This document shows positions 986-58,165 of a stretch of 64,000 nucleotides of DNA, piece by piece. The stretch spans positions 29,946,001-30,010,000 of the forward strand of contig OX597832.1 of NCBI GenBank assembly GCA_951406725.2. Direction: 5' to 3'. Every line of letters begins with the position of its first letter. The stretch's first letter is position 1. The stretch comes from Octopus vulgaris (taxonomy: Eukaryota). Under the pieces are notes generated by a model. The model ran no database searches, had not been told where the DNA came from, and saw only the letters and a program-made list of their open reading frames with translations. The position numbers and the translations under genes were made by a program.

Positions 986-1560
986 ATATTTAGAGAGTGA
1001 GAAAGAAAGAGGGGAGGTGAGTGGAGAAGAGAGATTCAACATAAACATAAATGATTTCTACAATTATTGCTTTTATTTTATTTTATTTTATTGCACACAA
1101 AAAAGGGGACTTTGAGATGTTTATGTTTTACCAAAAGCATTTAATACCAAATGAAACCCTTCAGGTTGGTGAATTGTAATTAAGGCTGATAGGTCTATGA
1201 GATGTTTATCTTTATCATGATATATATATACATACACATTTGTCACCCAAATATATACAAAATCTAACTGAAAGAAAGAAAAACTATTATGGAATATGAA
1301 ATGAAAGGTGGACCAAGCAATTGATAAAGATGTCCTGTGTGTACAAGGTTTCAGCAATTAGTCTAATGCTCAAGTGATGTGTAATCATATACATTTATAT
1401 ATGTGTGTGTGTGTGAGTGTGTCAGTAAGCCAATAGGTCATGAGTTGTAATATGTAGGTGTGAAATGAGGCACAAGCAGGGGCAGGTGGGTTGGTGATGG
1501 GACAAGTGGACGGGGGTCTTGGTAAAGTTCGCCAGAAGTGAAATAACACTCGATGCTTCC

Positions 1561-16459
<14,899 letters not shown>

Positions 16460-20574: not shown

Positions 20575-21365
20575 TTGATCAGTTAAAATGCTTCAATAGT
20601 CTTGACTATTAATTCTGCCATGAAGGGAAACCATTGGGCCGGCGGATTTCCAAGATACAGCTCCTCAGATCATCACAGATCTCCTCCATGTTTAACAGTT
20701 GGAAGAAGACAGTCTGGGTCAAATGCTTCTTTTGGCTCTCTCCACACGTATACTCGGCTGGTGGTCGGAAATAAGGTAAAGGATGATTCGTCCAAGAATA
20801 TAACATTCTTCCACTGCTCTAGGGACCAATTCTGTATGTGTTTACTCCCCTCTAAATGCTTTGCAATGTTTGTTTTTGAAAGTAGTGGGTTTTCTGATTG
20901 CAACCCTCCCATGAAATCCAGCTTTGTGCAGCTCCCGGCGAACAGTTTTTGTGGAAACTGAGTTCTCGAGGTGGTCATTAAGCTCTCCAGTAATTTTGGA
21001 ATCTGTACTTTTGTGATCCTTTCTAACAATTCGCATAAAAGTCCAGCGGTCCCTCTTCTTCTGGAGTTTTGTTTCGACGAGTAGGATTTTTTCCCCTTTC
21101 TCAAAGGCTGTCATTACTTTCGAGACAGTACTTCTTGATACACCAAACATTTCAGCTGTTTTCGTCACGCTATCGCCTGCCATACGAGCACCAACAATTT
21201 GACCTTTTTGAAAGTCCGATAGATCTGTCATTTTAATGAATTTTAATTACCTTTTTCTGATGATATCTGAGAAGAAACTCCAATTGTAGTAAAACGTATT
21301 AAGCAACACTAATAATAAATAAATAAAAAATTTAAATAAACCAGCTTTTGATGGTTTTATAGATA
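20575..21365 (-). mobile_element. Tc1-family transposon fragment with a frameshifted, 3'-truncated transposase
   Basis: MTDLSDFQKGQIVG...GVSRSTVSKV HTH, TVRRELHKAGFHGR, WKNVIFLDESSF and PTVKHGG. Confidence 0.92.
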
Positions 21366-29632: not shown

Positions 29633-32600
29633 GTTAGCATCATTTCCTATTTTCTTTTACGGAAGAGATTCCATTTTTACCAGATTACATCGAAGCCAAA
29701 CTATTTTGTTGACATCAAAAGCTTTTTCTGCCCAAAAAGAATGTTAATTGTTGAAAACTCTTCATTTAAACTTTATCAATTCAATGTCCATAATTTTTTC
29801 TTATGAATTTTTCCTAATGTTAATTAATGATCAGACCCTGAGATACCTGGAAATATTTACCAATATTTATTCCATTACAGAATATAATATAATATATAGC
29901 TTTCTACATAACTCCCAGTGGATTACTCTCCCTAGATTGTCGTGTCCTTTTCTTGTATTCTTTCTGTGCCACCATGTTACATTCACTTATTATGTGAGTA
30001 ACGGGTTTCCTCTTTTGATTTGCATAATCTACATTGGGAATCTAATTGGTTGTTGTCTATCTTGGCTTTTATCCAATTAGTCCTTAATGCTTGATCTTGT
30101 ACAGCTATTATTATTATTATTTTGTTGTAGCCATATCTGTTATGTATCCAACCTTTCTATGCCAAACTTAACCCCAAAATGCTTTAGATAGTTCCGCTTC
30201 AAACATTTCTTCCATCCTTATTGTTACACGTCACAGTTGGTTTGTTTCTTCTTTATTTTTGTTATTTTTTTTCTCAATGGTCCACCTTACAAACACAATG
30301 AAGAAATATGAAGAATATAGTTAAATTCACTTAGAAACATTTGAGTTGTTTTCTTGTTTAAAGACACAGACTACCATTTCTATTGTCTAGGTGAAGAAAA
30401 TGCCTCTGGGACAGTCACCTTTGTAAATGGACCCCATAAAATAATTGTTGACACCGGAAACCCATGGGATAAAGAGGATATTATTCAAGGTAAGAGATAT
30501 CAATTTTGATTCAGTTCCATGCAGACCAAAATGTAGAACTTGTTGTCATTAGCATTTAAGAATATTCCAAAATATCTTTCACATTAATTTTTTTGCATAA
30601 TTCATGCCAACTGGCAACCATTGTCCTTTGATATTTGTTAACCCTTTCATTACCAACCCAGGTGAAACCGCCTCTGGCTCTAGTACAAATGTCTTGTTTC
30701 CCTAAGTTTTGAATTAAATTCTTCTACTAAACCTTAGTCACAATTTATGTTCCTAACACTGGCTGAATGATAACTAAGTTATTTTACTAAATTCTTTGTT
30801 ATATTTAAAATAATTGAGAGAAAAACAGAGCATCTCAAAATAAATACGGTAACAAAAGGGTTAATATTATCACAGAGTTTATGACAAATAACTTTCCTGT
30901 ATTGTAGGTCTTGCCAAACATGCTGTGCTCCCTTCAGATATTGATTACGTTGTGTGTACGCACGGACACCTGGACCACGTTGGCAACCTGAACCTATTCA
31001 CCAATGCTATTTATATTGTATCTTATGACATCTGCATTCGAAACCGATATTTGATGCACGACTTTAAAGAGGTAACATCATTGATTTTTAAAAAAATAAT
31101 TATATTGGTTTCAATTGCAGTGTGGAAGGTGTTTATAAGCCATTTAAGAAACACAAAACCGTTAGATTCACTTCAACATTTAAATATAAAAGTTGAAGTG
31201 AATCGAATGGTTTTTGTGTGTTTCTCAAATGGCTTATAAACACCTTCCACGCTGCAATTGTTTTCATTCCAACACACGATCTCAGATCAGGTCACTTGCT
31301 ATGCAAGTGCATCTCCGTAATATATTGGTTTCGTTGTTGTTTATAAAACGAAACACTGCAGCTGTGTGGTTAAGAAGTTTGCTTCCCAACCACATGGTTC
31401 TGAGTTCAGTCCCACCTTGGGAAAAGTTTCTTTTAGTAGATCCCTAGGCCAAACAAGGCTTTGCGAGTGGATTTGATGGGTGGAAACTGATAGAAGCCTG
31501 TCATGTGTGTGTTGGTGCCTCTTTGTTTTGACACCAGGCGATGGCTGTCACTGTCATCATCATCATCATCATCATCATTTAATGTCTGTTGTCCATGCTG
31601 GCATGGCTTAGGTAGTTTGTCTGGAACAGGTAAGCCAGAGAGCTGCACCAGGTTCCAGTCTCTGATTTGGCAGAGTTTCTACAGCTGGATGCCCTTCCGT
31701 GTGTGTGTGTTTATATATTAATGTTTGTTTTTATATTCAGTTATAATAAAAATAATTTTACTTTAATCTGATGAGTTACTCTGTACTTTTTTAGAGTACA
31801 AATTTGTCATGCTTTGACAAGAATGTTGTTGACAGTGATTTGGAAGTTCCGGTGAGTTAAGCCATCATTGAACTGCATTTTAATTCCAGTCTGATAATGG
31901 CTTACTCACTGGAAACTTGAAGCCACACTTACACAACATTCTTGTGTAAGAATATATGTGTGTGTGTGTGTGTGTGCTGGTGTGGAACTTATTTTATCTC
32001 TCAAGCAAATTGGAGCAAGTAGAGTGATATGCCTCCCCATCAGCATCATCATCATCATCGTTTAATGTCTATTTTCCATGCTAGCATGGGTTGGACAATT
32101 TTGACTGAGGTCTGGCAAACCAGATGGCTGCACCAGGCTCCAATCTGATCTGGCAGAGTTTCTACAGCTGGATGCCCTTCCTTATGCCAACCACTCCAAG
32201 AGTGTAGTGGGTGCTTTTACATGCGACCGCCACGGGGCCCAGTTTGGTGGTACGCCCTATAAAACTGTAAAGTCTGATTTCCTTAACACTTTTGACCATT
32301 CACACACCTGTATTGATTGTTTTTTGTTTTGTTTTGTTTCGTTAGGGCATTCCTTATGAAATCGATGATTATGTTGAAGTAATTGCCACTCCTGGTCACA
32401 CAGGGGAAGACGTATCGGTCATTGTCAAAAGCACACCTCATGGTGTTGTAGCCATCACAGGTGAGTATACCTTTCCTCTATTCCAACAGCAGTAGTTGTA
32501 AGCGTCACATGGATCAGCCCATGTAGCAGTAATGTTTACCGAAAGAACCTCTAGCTGTCAATGTCGGTGAAAGGCATATATATATATATATATTTATGGT

Positions 32601-39817: not shown

Positions 39818-41106
39818 TGAAAGAAGGAATACTGCCATCATTATTGTTAAAACATTCATCGTCATCGTCATCACCATCATCACCAACAGCAGCAGCAACT
39901 CCAAAACGAAACTGGTCCTTCTTCGTCTCAACTTATAACCGCCACAACAAAACTGTCAACAGGTCGCTCTTTGGGTTGATGTAGAAATGAAACTACTTTT
40001 ATACCTGCCGCCACCACCACAATTTGTAGGTGTTTTATTGTGTATCTAAGACACTAGACTTTCTTTTAAATCTCCCTGGTTTAATGAAAAGATGATGTAA
40101 TGATGTCCTTGGAGGGAGAGATGACACGCAGGTAGATGATGTAATGCTGTCCTTGGACGGAGGTGAACGTTCTGGCCAGGGAGATAAGAATTACCATTTC
40201 ACATCGTAGCATCACAGCGTTACCCGATACAGTTCCCCTGCTAACAGGTGCAAAACTTATTTAACTTTTTAGAAGAGTGATGTTGTGATAGTCATTCAGA
40301 ACCGGGAATCAAAAGCCTGGTCGTAGTATGTCTTTGCTAACTGAAGTCTGAGTAGCTAAAGGATAAAAGGGGACAGGTTGATATTGAACTGAAATCCCCG
40401 GGGACCGAGACCAGTATAGTAGTTGTGGCTTGTAGAGCAGAATTCATGAATTAAATTTCACAAATCACAAACAAATATTTAATAAAGCACGTTCTTATTT
40501 ATTTATCTATTTATTTATTCCTTAATCCGCTTAACGAAGGTTAATGCATGACGGGATTATTTGAGTGTTGTGAGTAAGGCTGAGACACAGCATAAACAGA
40601 AAATGGGGAAAACATAACCTGTCAAAAATAACTCGCATTTTAAGCTAACTCGGCAAATCCAGAATATCTCATGACTGGACATTACACCTGTAATCTCTCG
40701 CTTTTTGGAATATTTCAAACATTTATATAAATTTGTTTTACGTAACAAATTCAGTCATAAATGACACCAGTTGTTGGTTGAGAGACTTTTCAAACAAACT
40801 TTCTTTACTTTAGAAAAATTGCTAAACATTTCGTTTATGAAACAAAAGATATTTATTCCAAATCAAATCGTTTACAGTGCTTGTGGAGGATAAAGTATAT
40901 TTTACCGACGTGGAATATTTAAATCCAGATTTTTAACACATAAAGTAAAAAAATATCTGAAATATTTAAGACAAACATTTTCGCCATGAAACCATTTCCT
41001 AAAAAGATGTTTGTTTGTTTGTTTTAAGTCCTGTTAAAACCAACCGAAATATATTTCACTGACTTATTTCTTTGATGATGCTTGCAATGGATACATTTTT
41101 CAAAGA

Positions 41107-41937
41107 ATGGCCAATACTTGCTGCTACTTCGGTCATTCCAAAGTACCTCAAAGACTCGACCAACTGGAATATATAATCAGTAAACTCAAACGGAAATTTG
41201 AAAAAATTGAAGAACGTGTGTTGGATATTGGAGAATATATGGACTTATACATTGACAAAATACGGGAATTAAATCAATTAACAAGTCTTTTAATCATCTT
41301 GAAAGGTGGTAATGAGGAATCGCTACAATTAATGGATTATCTGCTAATATTTTTTACAGCCATCAGTAACCAGATGAAAGAAAAGGATGAGACTATGAAC
41401 CAAGAATATTCTCTCTTTACTTTGCGAAACGATGCCAAAACCCAGAAACTGATGGCAGACGTCTTAGATATTTTAGGTTTCACTTCGGAATGTATTCACA
41501 TCTTGAAGCTAAGTTTAAGAATCGTTCATGAAGATGAATGGAGAAAACGAAAGAAAGGGTTGAGCAGTTTCGATGCAGTGAAAGACACTCAGAAAGTTTA
41601 TAATTATTTACGTTCGACCCATTCCGACGTCGAAAGAGACATACAGTTCACCTTACAGAAGATGATAGCCATTGTATATTTTGAGGCATTATTCGCTCAT
41701 ATTTCGGACAATTCAGAAACCTTGGAAGCGAATTCAGAGAATTCCCTTTCTGGAATCGATCTCGGTTCCCACGAATCGGATAATTCAGCTGAATTCGAAC
41801 TTAGTTCTCATTTCGACCATTCTTTAGGTAATTCTCTGAAACAACGCGAAGACGAAGTAATATTTCACGATTTATTGACTGACATCAAATCCTCTGTCAA
41901 GAAAATGCGAGCCCAAAAATTATTTAAATTAAAATAA
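41107..41937 (+). CDS. Intronless 276-aa hypothetical protein, predicted helical/coiled-coil
   Basis: 831-nt stop-free ATG-TAA ORF of normal complexity in AT-rich unique sequence. No TE motifs recognised. Confidence 0.65.
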   Translation: MANTCCYFGHSKVPQRLDQLEYIISKLKRKFEKIEERVLDIGEYMDLYIDKIRELNQLTSLLIILKGGNEESLQLMDYLLIFFTAISNQMKEKDETMNQEYSLFTLRNDAKTQKLMADVLDILGFTSECIHILKLSLRIVHEDEWRKRKKGLSSFDAVKDTQKVYNYLRSTHSDVERDIQFTLQKMIAIVYFEALFAHISDNSETLEANSENSLSGIDLGSHESDNSAEFELSSHFDHSLGNSLKQREDEVIFHDLLTDIKSSVKKMRAQKLFKLK

Positions 41938-44575: not shown

Positions 44576-45089
44576 CCGTAAATCCTCGAGTAGAACCCGC
44601 ATTTTCCCTCCCAAATTTAAAGGTCAAAATCCCTAGTGCGTACTATATACGAGGTTAAAAACGAAAAATATTTTCTAAGCAATGTCTGAGTCCCTATTTG
44701 CTGTCCGGCAATGTTTATTCAGACGCATTTTGTGGTGTCGGGCGCGAAAATACCTTAAGCTAAGCCTGAAAGCAATAAAGTCATATAAGAATCGTCCATA
44801 ACTTGCAGTAAGCAACATTTATTAAACGTTATTACTGTTATTTCTTTATTTTCTGCAAACAAAATGCACAAAAAAGCTACACGCTTGCATCATGTTATAT
44901 ATACAATAATAATAAAGGACGTCACCGTATACATTTTTACAAACCAAGGACGTTATATAAACCTCCTTGACTCAAGTTAGAGAAGGAGTGCGTATTATAC
45001 ACAAGGTTTAAGTTTTTCAGAGATACAGCCCGCTAAAAATCCCCTGCGTATTATAACCCCAGGGGCGGACTATACTTGAGGATTTACGG
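44576..45089. mobile_element. Tc2/pogo-like MITE
   Basis: TA|CCGTAAATCCTCGAGTA...TACTTGAGGATTTACGG|TA. A copy of the right half lies at 56363-56524. Confidence 0.88.
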
Positions 45090-45989
45090 TATATGCAAAA
45101 ACAATTCAGTTTTAATTTTTAAAAATTCTATCATTAGAACTTTTCAATTTTTGAGTTTTTCGAATTTTTTCTTTTTAAATGTTGCTTTCTTTTTTAATTA
45201 TAAAACTGTGGTTACTGGAACTGTCCAGGGACAGAGCGAAGTGGAAACGAGATAAAGGAGAGATCTACAATAACTGGAAGAGAACTATATAGGATGGTCA
45301 TAACTGTAACGCCGTTGATCATTGTTGTGCTCAGTGTAGGACTGACCCGGGGCTAAACAACGACAGCAAAAACAAATTCTGTATCGATTGGAATGGATAC
45401 GAACATCAAAATAACTTATTGTTCTCCCACATCTTTACATTATAATGAAAGGATTTCCAACCATGACCACCTTTTCATAAATCAATCTATTCTTGCTTAA
45501 AAGACGACAGGTTTTAAGGCTTGGCTGTTATTTCTAGCAGGTGGAATGACTAGCTCTCGTTGGTCCGATCAAGTCAGTGGACGTTGAATGGAATTATTCC
45601 TTTCGCAGTCTGGCAAGTAAAATGGATGTCGTGGCGTTCATCTCTTTCCATCAGTTATAGAAATAAAAGGGATTGTGTTAAAGTCTGAGAGGGTTTCCCT
45701 CTGTTGTGTCAGCTTTTCGATCCAACAGGAGGAATGTGAGTATGTGAGGTTCATGCCTCTCTTAAGAACATTTGTGCTATAACACATGTACTCTTTTACT
45801 CTTTTACTTGCTTCAGTCATTTGACTGTGGCCATGCTGGAGCACAGCCTTTAGTCGAGCAAATCGACCCCAGGACGTATTCCTTGTAAGCCTAGTACTTA
45901 TTCTATCGGTGTCTTATTGCCGAACCGCTAAGTTACGGGGACGTAAACACACCAGCGTCGGTTGTCAAACAATGCTAGGGGGACAAACA

Positions 45990-55718: not shown

Positions 55719-55829
<111 letters not shown>

Positions 55830-55894
55830 GTCCCGGTTGATTCGGGGTTAACCACAGTAAATAAGGTACTCAATACATAGCAGAGTAAAATTAA

Positions 55895-56020
55895 TTTATT
55901 ATAGAAGGAGCTTCTACAGGACTAGAACTGTTTCATTCAAGAGAAATCTTCAGGAAGCTTCCTGAAGATTTCTCTTGAATGAAACAGTTCTAGTCCTGTA
56001 AACTCCTTCTATATAATAAA

Positions 56021-56021
<1 letters not shown>
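55895..56021. ncRNA. Palindromic head-to-head pair of type-I hammerhead motifs, copy 1
   Basis: Minus arm: AGCUUC-CUGAAGA-UUUC(ucuu)GAAU-GAA-ACAG(uucuaguc)CUGU-A/GAAGCU (55959-55909). The plus arm is its mirror with a damaged stem-I 3' strand. Confidence 0.78.
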
Positions 56022-56075
<54 letters not shown>

Positions 56076-56080
56076 GTATG

Positions 56081-56154
<74 letters not shown>

Positions 56155-56276
56155 TTATTTTATAGAAAGCTTCTACAGGACTAGAACTGTTTCATTCAAA
56201 TGAAATCATCAGGAAGCGCTTCCTGATGATTTCATTTGAATGAAACAGTTCTAGTCTGTAAAGCTCCTTCTATAAA

Positions 56277-56280
<4 letters not shown>
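56155..56280. ncRNA. Palindromic head-to-head pair of type-I hammerhead motifs, copy 2
   Basis: GCUUC-CUGAUGA-UUUC(auuu)GAAU-GAA-ACAG(uucuaguc)CUGU-A/GAAGC. Within the core it differs from copy 1 at position 7 and loop II, both unconstrained positions. Confidence 0.78.
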
Positions 56281-56344
<64 letters not shown>

Positions 56345-56594
56345 ATGTATGTATGTATGTTACCGTATACATTTTTACAAACCAAGGACGTTATATAGAC
56401 CTCCTTGATTCATGTTAGAAAAGTGGTGCGCATTATACATAGGGTTTAGGTTTTTCAGAGGTACAGCCCCTAAAAATTCCCTGTGTATTATACTCACGGG
56501 CGGACTATACTCGAGGATTTACGGTGACCGCGTGTGTATCGTTGGCGATTTTTTTCCCTCCATCTTCCCTTCCTTGGATCTTTCCTTCTCCTAT

Positions 56595-56630
56595 GTTTCT
56601 GACGAAGAGCTCCGCTCGAAACGTTAAATC
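56595..56630 (+). ncRNA. Minimal hammerhead-like motif
   Basis: GUUU-CUGACGA-A-GAGC(ucc)GCUC-GAAACGUUA/AAUC. Stem I is imperfect. Confidence 0.6.
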
Positions 56631-56741
56631 TTCCTTTTTTTCTTTCCTTTCCTGGGCGTCCAATAACACTATACTTGTTCCACGTCCTCGCGTTGTTGTG
56701 TTTTCTCTTTGTGTTTTCATGTTTGGATTAACTAGATATAC

Positions 56742-56841
<100 letters not shown>

Positions 56842-56937
56842 CGGGAAGCTTTATGAAAATAAACAAAAGACGAAGGCAGGTGGAATACAAACAAACAATT
56901 GTATTAGTATGGCGCTCAGGAATAGAAATAAAACAAG

Positions 56938-56975
56938 TCTTTTACGTTTCGAGCCTACGCTCTTCAACAGAAAGA
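56938..56975 (-). ncRNA. Minimal hammerhead-like motif with A6U
   Basis: UCUUU-CUGUUGA-A-GAGC(guag)GCUC-GAAACGUA/AAAGA. 5-bp stem I. Confidence 0.6.
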
Positions 56976-58165
56976 TACACAGAAAAGAAACACGGAGAGA
57001 AACAAGGAGAGAAAAAAAATGCGTGCAGGAGCTAACGATATATATATATATATATATATTACTTTTTGTTATGAATATTGGCTCTGTTGTCAATATGTAC
57101 ATATATTGTATTTTAAATCAGTTTAAACACTGGTTTCAAATTTTGGTACAAGGCCAGCAATTTGGGGAGAGGGGGGAGAGGGGTAAACCGATTACATCGA
57201 CCCCAGTATTCAACTGGTACTGATTTTATTGACCCCCTTCGAAAGGATGAAAGACAAAGTCGAACTCGGTAGAATTTGAACTCAGACCGTAAAGACGGTT
57301 GAAATGTCGCTAAATTCTTTTCGCCTGGCGTGCCACCGGGTGTGCCATCTTGCCGCCTTAATCAGTTTAAATATTAATATTTATGATTTATTAATTGGAA
57401 TAGGGATATTGTAAATAGAGGGAGAGAAATGAGATGTTGTGGCGTTTATTTCTTTCCCAGAATATTAATTAAAACTAGAGTGGAAAAGATGTTTTCAGGC
57501 GAGAATCGAGACTTGACTGAAAGCGAACATAGCGCCATCTATCATCGATAAAGATCGAATTTAATGGTCGATCAAACCAGTAATGCACTGGGGGTCGGCT
57601 AGGTCGATCCGGGTATTAACGGGGGTTTTATCGAAATGGTCCGAATGAAAAGAAAAGTAAAACTCACTCGAGCAGGATTTGAGCCTGGAATATGAAGACA
57701 CCAGAAGTGGACATCACAATGGAACTGGTCAGTCCACCGTTCATTGTACCTATTGACCCCACTGGTCACTGTCAGTCTTTTGTCTGTCTCTCAATCTCTC
57801 AGCCTCTGTCTCTCTTCCAGTCTCTGTATGTCTCTCTCTTTCTTTCTCTCTCTCTTTCTTTCTTTCTCTCCCTCTCTCTTTTCTCTCTCTCTCTTTCTTT
57901 CTCCCAGTCTCCCCCTCTCTCTCTCTCACACACACACAGACATACACACATACATCACAACAAAAGACACTCACCCCCTACAATAACAGACACACGACCA
58001 CTACTCCCACCGCCACCACCACCACCACCACCAGCACCACTACTACCACCACCACCACCACCCACATCCACCACCGTTTCAATAAAACGTCACAATAAAA
58101 CACGCCCAATAAAACACACACAAAAATACACACACACACAACTCGACACTCTCTGTCTCTCTCAG

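Follow-up and report, generated by a model that had tools for sequence, protein, structure and literature searches.

Head-to-head hammerhead ribozyme palindromes in Octopus vulgaris as probable fold-back copies of truncated Penelope-like element ends

The 64 kb window analysed here (the whole stretch of Octopus vulgaris DNA, 64,000 nucleotides) contains two palindromic cassettes of hammerhead ribozyme sequence embedded in (TA)n. These are probably the 5'-truncated 3' ends (pLTRs) of a Penelope-like element (PLE), in which the cDNA folded back at short self-complementary motifs to leave dead-end hairpin copies. The cassettes show several PLE hallmarks: a terminal hammerhead, a palindromic head-to-head inversion that is 5'-truncated, a tail at one end, and a microsatellite or AT-rich target. 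Membership in PLEs is argued from these non-coding hallmarks because no RT or endonuclease ORF was seen; searches for RT and GIY-YIG domains returned no match in the 279 of 297 window frames that were scanned (18 frames at 270-2823 lie outside the scan), an absence expected for a truncated copy, and a min-HHR pattern search aimed at a PLE ORF also gave no match. To this extent, the Penelope-like affinity proposed in an initial annotation of the sequence is supported. Observations that count against this reading include a tail of 62 nt, as compared with the published 30-40 bp; a ribozyme that does not conform to the minimal consensus of PLE hammerheads; an isolated arm that folds no better than shuffled sequences; and 5' junctions that cluster more tightly than random truncation would suggest.

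The two head-to-head palindromes, as initially described, are borne out, with centres at 55957/58 and 56217/18 and perfect arms of 43 and 39 bp; when indels are allowed, the arms extend to ~68 nt and ~63 nt, respectively (Table 1). No third non-simple palindrome of at least 14 bp occurs in the 64 kb window. The centres of the two palindromes differ by one base per arm, and within each palindrome the two cores lie 8-10 nt apart, with stem I common to both. All four arms carry the CUGANGA, GAAA, and ACAG/CUGU motifs, CUAG in loop III, and GUA, as the initial annotation had stated, but stem I is in register only in the left arms as assembled. Cassette 1 is asymmetric, its left arm alone running on into the tail; the tail falls outside the 55895..56280 range first assigned to the cassettes and had been missed. 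The cassettes differ from one another at N7 and in loop II, and each of these differences is indeed mirrored in both arms. Independent draws would produce such mirrored variants with a chance of at most 0.07-0.14; a single template for each palindrome, as originally proposed, is therefore probable on this pattern.

Table 1. Coordinates of the palindromic cassettes, their hammerhead motifs, and adjoining features in the window
Feature	Coordinates	Strand	Details
(TA)n target tract left of cassette 1	55721..55826		read from sequence
62-nt optional 3' family tail, cassette 1 left side	55828..55889	-	adjoins (TA)n
Cassette 1 left arm	55890..55957	-	complete type-I hammerhead plus 25 nt to first (TA)n junction
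Hammerhead, cassette 1 left arm	55909-55959	-	C3 55953; N7 55949; U10.1 55946; loop II 55942-55939; U11.1 55935; predicted cut after A17 at 55915
Centre, palindrome 1	55955-55960		AAGCTT; overlaps stem I 5' strand of both arms
Cassette 1 right arm	55958..56025	+	inverted copy; core at 55962; A17 at 56000; without tail
(TA)n tract between cassettes	56026..56151		read from sequence
Cassette 2 left arm	56152..56217	-	5-bp stem I; without tail
Hammerhead, cassette 2 left arm	56169-56217	-	complete type-I; C3 56212; predicted cut after A17 at 56174
Centre, palindrome 2	56214-56221		AAGCGCTT
Cassette 2 right arm	56218..56283	+	inverted copy; core at 56223; A17 at 56260
(TA)n / (TATG)n tract right of cassette 2	56284..56359		read from sequence
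Minimal hammerhead, different PLE-like family	56595..56629	+	extra base after A9; G10.1-C11.1; 2-bp helix III
Minimal hammerhead, one core mismatch (A6U)	56938..56975	-	200-bp piece between two (TA)n tracts

A hammerhead descriptor of our own recovered five motifs in the window, while 12 shuffled controls yielded no exact-core match and one relaxed match in total. The left arms contain every core base (C3-A9, G12-A14, A15.1-U16.1, and H17), with stems of 6/5, 3, and 4 bp; by core and three helices they are type-I hammerheads, in support of the identity first assigned to them. Helix I is 6 bp long, and helix III has 4 bp and an 8-nt loop. Stem II opens with U10.1·U11.1, followed by three pairs (UUC/GAA) and a four-base loop; the G10.1-C11.1 pair is absent, with U·U in all four arms and no variant at 2% or above across the runs analysed. 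U10.1·U11.1 is described as a natural variant and the best tolerated mispair (PMC3088659). Helix III is a degenerate 16-nt palindrome for which the predicted homodimer (−12.8 kcal/mol) is favoured over the hairpin (−1.4 kcal/mol). The isolated arm folds no better than shuffled sequences (z of 0.17 and −0.22), with a stem II pair probability of 0.06-0.07; because the single arm folds this weakly, help from a dimer or a protein is likely needed, and the same need is reported for PLE hammerheads (PMC4209133; PMC11167929). By eye, 55899-55917 and its mirrored copies form a hairpin of their own (UAGAAG/CUUCUA) 3' of the cut, which would compete with stem I. The comparison with Rfam suggested in the initial annotation identified no hammerhead match in the window, the cassette region, or a single arm; the same models also missed six type-III examples (described below) and the neighbouring min-HHRs. 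Matches to miRNA families fell below the gathering score and were rejected as generic hairpin matches.

The cassette arm belongs to a highly repeated Octopus family. Among the matches listed, the stretch or part of it is present in 20 of 24 sequencing runs, four of which were analysed (X4, X3, X10, and X13, from four studies under three organism labels, one of them perhaps the source). Matching contigs numbered 1287 in X4 and 1324 in X3 (both DNA runs), 95 in X10, and 2 in X13, and included solo arms; summed depth, which is not a copy number, reached 1e5-1e6 as compared with 12-39 for single-junction contigs. Five sites among those listed vary at 2% or above, namely N7, three loop II positions, and a minor site 3' of stem I. 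Four of the five are at N7 or in loop II (chance 0.01-0.065, counted as two events), and no variant at 2% or above was found in the core or stems in the four runs, the contigs of which break at variants and miss rare ones. The stems being invariant at this level, the covariation in stems I-III that the initial annotation had called for was not seen. The pattern of variable positions is consistent with the ribozyme being under selection in source copies.

The 3' side of the family has two alternative junctions with (TA)n, which lie 25 and 87 nt beyond the cut site. Among the matches listed, loose contig ends running into (TA)n fall at 55899 (X4, 23 contigs; X3, 25; X10, 2) and at 55835 (X4, 23; X3, 12; X13, 1; X10, 2). 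The unit extends left to ~55828, and the 62-nt tail is covered at family-level depth and ends in a predicted stem-loop, after which (TA)n begins. The proposed (TA)n targeting is supported, in that (TA)n lies on both sides within 300 nt of all seven hammerhead positions (7/7), as compared with 5% of random positions; these positions represent only two loci, and the count is therefore not independent. No copy of the octopus family was found in viral contigs, metagenome contigs (by blast check), or GTDB genomes.

Assembly quality bears most directly on the right arms. Both right (+) arms are missing the G directly after the GUA cleavage site, and that of cassette 1 is missing a second G as well; the right arm of cassette 2, as assembled, also lacks one loop-III C. 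Because the G after GUA is missing, stem I cannot form in register in the right arms, where 0 bp are paired as assembled; the left arms pair 6 and 5 bp. Differences confined to indels are a trait of long-read consensus error. The arms here differ from one another at 8 gap columns with 0 substitutions, and contigs from three of the four runs analysed restore one or both Gs (at 56000 and/or 56002, in X3, X13, and X4, the last at low depth); the missing Gs may therefore be consensus errors. Depth on the window version of 56001-56021 is ~1e2-1e3, versus >5e5 on the mirrored left arm. That long-read sequencing or assembly created the palindromes themselves by fold-back, a concern raised in the initial annotation, is hardly credible. 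The purely insertion- and deletion-type arm differences do indicate a local consensus that is probably imperfect, and among the matches listed 0 contigs span the whole locus; however, the palindromes exit into different flanks, their two centres are not identical, and short-read contigs from three runs cross the palindrome centre head-to-head, one of them by 49 and 36 letters, which makes a fold-back artefact unlikely.

The 5' junctions cluster at the border of stem I, but their position is not fixed, contrary to the initial proposal of an inversion point fixed at this stem. Of the 26 contigs among the matches listed, nine (from X4, X3, and X10) read through the centre in head-to-head orientation and vary by −10 to +5 nt in net length; other contigs continue upstream. 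One of the 26 has at least 31 letters on both sides of the centre, and one centre-crossing X10 record is a poor match. Because perfect palindromes would presumably block the assembly of such contigs, we infer that the crossing contigs represent diverged palindromes. Loose ends at 55956/55959 occur in 17 contigs of X4, 20 of X3, and 3 of X10, among the matches listed. The X4 loose ends (6 and 11 contigs; agreement 0.92 and 0.61) have a common upstream continuation, in which, by eye, a reading frame ends at a stop overlapping stem I; this arrangement is weakly suggestive of an ORF followed by its pLTR, and we take the end of the frame to bear a weak likeness to a GIY-YIG C-terminus. The X3 loose-end consensus is without this continuation; in X3 and X10, the loose ends show a fold-back of 3-6 nt centred on CTAG and then unrelated sequence (agreement 0.59-0.79). 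One X10 contig places (TA)n directly against stem I. The short self-complementary words AGCT, CTAG, and GTTAAC stand in a row at the stem I border. The clustering is partly a matter of ascertainment, because the query shows only junctions near its own centre. Two further explanations for the position were set aside: 3' splicing at the centre, where an AG is present (the two centres are not the same, and a free 5' end is not a product of splicing), and a 5' end defined by ribozyme cleavage, the cut after A17 lying ~40 nt away.

In the mechanism that we favour, the endonuclease of the element would nick AT-rich DNA, as may be extrapolated from PMC11167929, and RT would begin at either of two internal positions, located 25 and 87 nt beyond the cut site, resulting in two (TA)n junctions and an optional tail. 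PLE insertions are described as carrying a tail of 30-40 bp at one end (PMC8557442), and two RT start sites have been put forward to explain this one-end tail (PMC11167929). The cDNA would copy the uncleaved hammerhead and often stop just past stem I; its 3' end would then self-prime, copy back anything from a few bases to the whole arm, and rejoin (TA)n. The arms would share variants because the cDNA is copied back on itself, and partial self-priming would predict fold-backs of 3-6 nt followed by flank, as in the X3 and X10 loose ends. Head-to-head PLE repeats with palindromes at their junctions are reported as the most frequent arrangement, and are read in that source as self-priming on an antisense strand (PMC3846280); our model would place the self-priming step on the cDNA instead. 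Selection for ribozyme function would fall on source copies that are not palindromic, in which a helix III dimer or an element protein is probably needed.

Several of the same junction data could also be accommodated by a short non-autonomous element (~70-130 nt) with its 5' end set at stem I, mobilised in trans by a PLE and producing the palindrome as its normal product. The small non-autonomous element of the initial annotation thus stands as a possible but unlikely origin. Both window centres agree to within 1 nt per arm, the nine centre-crossing contigs differ in net length by no more than −10 to +5 nt, the best-supported 5'-side loose ends fall at 55956/55959, an X10 contig has (TA)n directly on stem I, and PLE-derived non-autonomous hammerhead elements have been proposed in the text of bioRxiv 10.64898/2026.07.22.740005. 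However, the X4 contigs have an upstream continuation in common, the clustering partly reflects a query to which distant junctions are invisible, no promoter or processing site was found for such a 5' end, and the hammerhead cuts after A17. A more improbable route is twin priming, in which a PLE dimer nicks both (TA)n strands and two cDNAs anneal head-to-head at AGCT or GC; the element would be unchanged, and only the way of joining would be different. An anole PLE protein is described as cleaving and extending both strands and is predicted to dimerise (PMC11167929); different start sites on each strand would yield a one-sided tail, and the missing base after the scissile bond in both right arms is what a template jump over cleaved RNA might give. 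Against this, the mirrored variants favour one template, fold-backs of 3-6 nt followed by flank are impossible from a second 3'-initiated cDNA, and contigs without the G make up a tiny share of family depth, so that assembly error is the likely source of the gap.

It is very improbable that the palindrome is itself the mobile unit, as a foldback or MITE-like DNA element with the hammerhead as an inherited passenger. Near-perfect inverted arms inside a TA target resemble such elements, some centre-crossing contigs have depths of 112-171, so several loci may share one junction, and a palindromic DNA repeat is known from frog (PMC5625713); yet a tail on one side only, centres that are not alike, arms that occur singly, and continuations upstream all argue otherwise, no transposase-type terminal motif was recognised, and variation at only ribozyme-tolerant positions would imply selection on single-stranded RNA. 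A Helentron-type element was also considered as an identity and set aside.

Under the fold-back cDNA model, read-through RNA of either strand is predicted to present the antisense arm first and to form a ~60 bp hairpin without cleavage. The computed hairpin is more stable than the best hammerhead-compatible fold by 56-67 kcal/mol, so that no ribozyme activity would be expected of these copies; the locking of the ribozyme in a hairpin, anticipated by the initial annotation, is thus supported by prediction, and both copies in the window are probably inert. Octopus and frog are described as the most hyper-edited species, and editing in the frog is partly explained by a palindromic repeat (PMC5625713); octopus gives the strongest hyper-editing signal and has exceptional dsRNA potential in that source, but does not appear in the repeat-family analysis as presented there. 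The octopus cassette family is a candidate dsRNA source for this hyper-editing. The A>G sites of X10, which is RNA only by guess, are also seen in the DNA run X4. A broader proposal is doubtful: that thousands of ribozyme-sized retroelement copies, with a 5' end set at stem I and usually inserted as self-silencing perfect palindromes, provide in their 60-bp hairpins a main substrate of A-to-I hyper-editing in octopus, their junctions recording how Penelope RT finishes its cDNA. Both the formation of inverted PLE ends and the role of the hammerhead are stated to be open (PMC8557442; PMC11167929). The cassettes offer two marker sites (N7 and loop II) in short inverted arms, such that counts of matched and unmatched arms would separate self-priming from twin priming. 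A ribozyme with U·U and a long helix III is missed by both Rfam and the min-HHR consensus, and counts of families of this kind may therefore be too low.

The cassettes have close neighbours of similar kind. The 1.2 kb at 55828-57038 contains six hammerhead motifs that represent at least two families, each piece being bounded by (TA)n, and this region is a repeatedly used insertion hot spot. The hammerhead at 56595..56629 fits the minimal consensus as given in PMC4209133. A solo hammerhead of another family lies between TA tracts at 14685-14729 (-), with a 5-bp stem I, a 5-bp stem II preceded by U·C at 10.1/11.1, a palindromic AGUACU helix III, and ~25 nt of sequence on the 5' side ahead of (TA)n. 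The U·C is the second pyrimidine mismatch to be seen at this position in the genome. A repeat of ~165 bp, 89% alike at 56361-56487 and 44924-45090, adjoins the hammerhead piece at 56599; we take it to resemble the remnant of a small DNA transposon. The window is otherwise microsatellite-rich animal DNA. It includes TGS1 exons at 4306-14251 (-), of which the exon at 12515-14251 is 96% identical to an Octopus sinensis protein and 88% to that of O. bimaculoides; a Tc1-type transposase remnant at 20676-21246 (-); a metallo-beta-lactamase-fold exon at 30892-31236 (+); and a 299-aa frame at 41038-41934 (+) with no Pfam match.

Searches outside octopus returned ribozymes that share part of this design. 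The cassette-core pattern matched 26 times in viral and metagenome contigs, 17 of the matches being distinct; 6 of these 17 have a type-III hammerhead fold, with differing 7-bp stems I, and 11 are without it. The six (L001, L002, L009, L010, L015, and L020) have U10.1·U11.1 and a UUC/GAA stem II, and none reaches the Rfam gathering score. Stem II is thus the same as in octopus, and an ACAG/CUGU-type helix III is present in four of the six; however, the type-III examples have a purine-rich loop II and a closed loop I, whereas the octopus arm, of type I, has a loop II that is variable and rich in pyrimidines, and no tertiary contact was recognised in it. A further contig, L025, has hammerhead-like cores with the same stem II at 716-739 and 1483-1506 (-), 767 bp apart, which lack a type-III fold and have weak type-I stems. 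The palindromic Harbinger repeat of Xenopus tropicalis (PMC5625713) is likewise short and self-folding, requiring no neighbouring inverted copy, but it belongs to a DNA transposon family and is described as an ADAR substrate with measured editing, while the octopus family is likely of retroelement type.

No report on octopus hammerheads or on zero-spacer twin hammerheads was found in the literature searched (subscription papers and Repbase/Dfam lie outside this search). Thirty recently active Penelope families are described in O. vulgaris (PMC13282606), and the library of that study may already contain the cassette family; 235 Rfam hammerheads are reported for the giant squid (PMC6962438). Non-LTR retrozymes (PMC7229834; bioRxiv 10.64898/2026.07.22.740005) resemble the octopus family in being small and non-coding, with a type-I hammerhead and a probable PLE origin, but are described as head-to-tail tandem units, whereas the octopus cassettes are head-to-head with (TA)n between them. 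The min-HHR of PMC4209133 shares with the octopus arms a type-I fold, the CUGANGA/GAAA core, a palindromic loop III suited to dimers, dispersed high copy, and opposite-strand pairs, which in Schistosoma mansoni are reported 100-700 bp apart. However, it has an extra base after A9, G10.1-C11.1, a long helix II, and a minimal helix III, none of which is found in the octopus arms; as judged by the consensus given in that source, the cassette ribozyme is not the minimal PLE hammerhead. The octopus cassettes are neither min-HHR nor retrozyme. The closest parallel is with inverted 5'-truncated PLE pLTRs, which are likewise described as head-to-head with a palindromic junction and a one-end tail, and which share with the cassettes (TA)n microsatellite targets and a hammerhead near the 3' end (PMC3846280; PMC8557442). 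The octopus arms differ in consisting of only the ribozyme and 25 nt, with no spacer, a 62-nt tail, and no ORF seen; as set out in these two sources, their overall architecture is one already described for PLEs.
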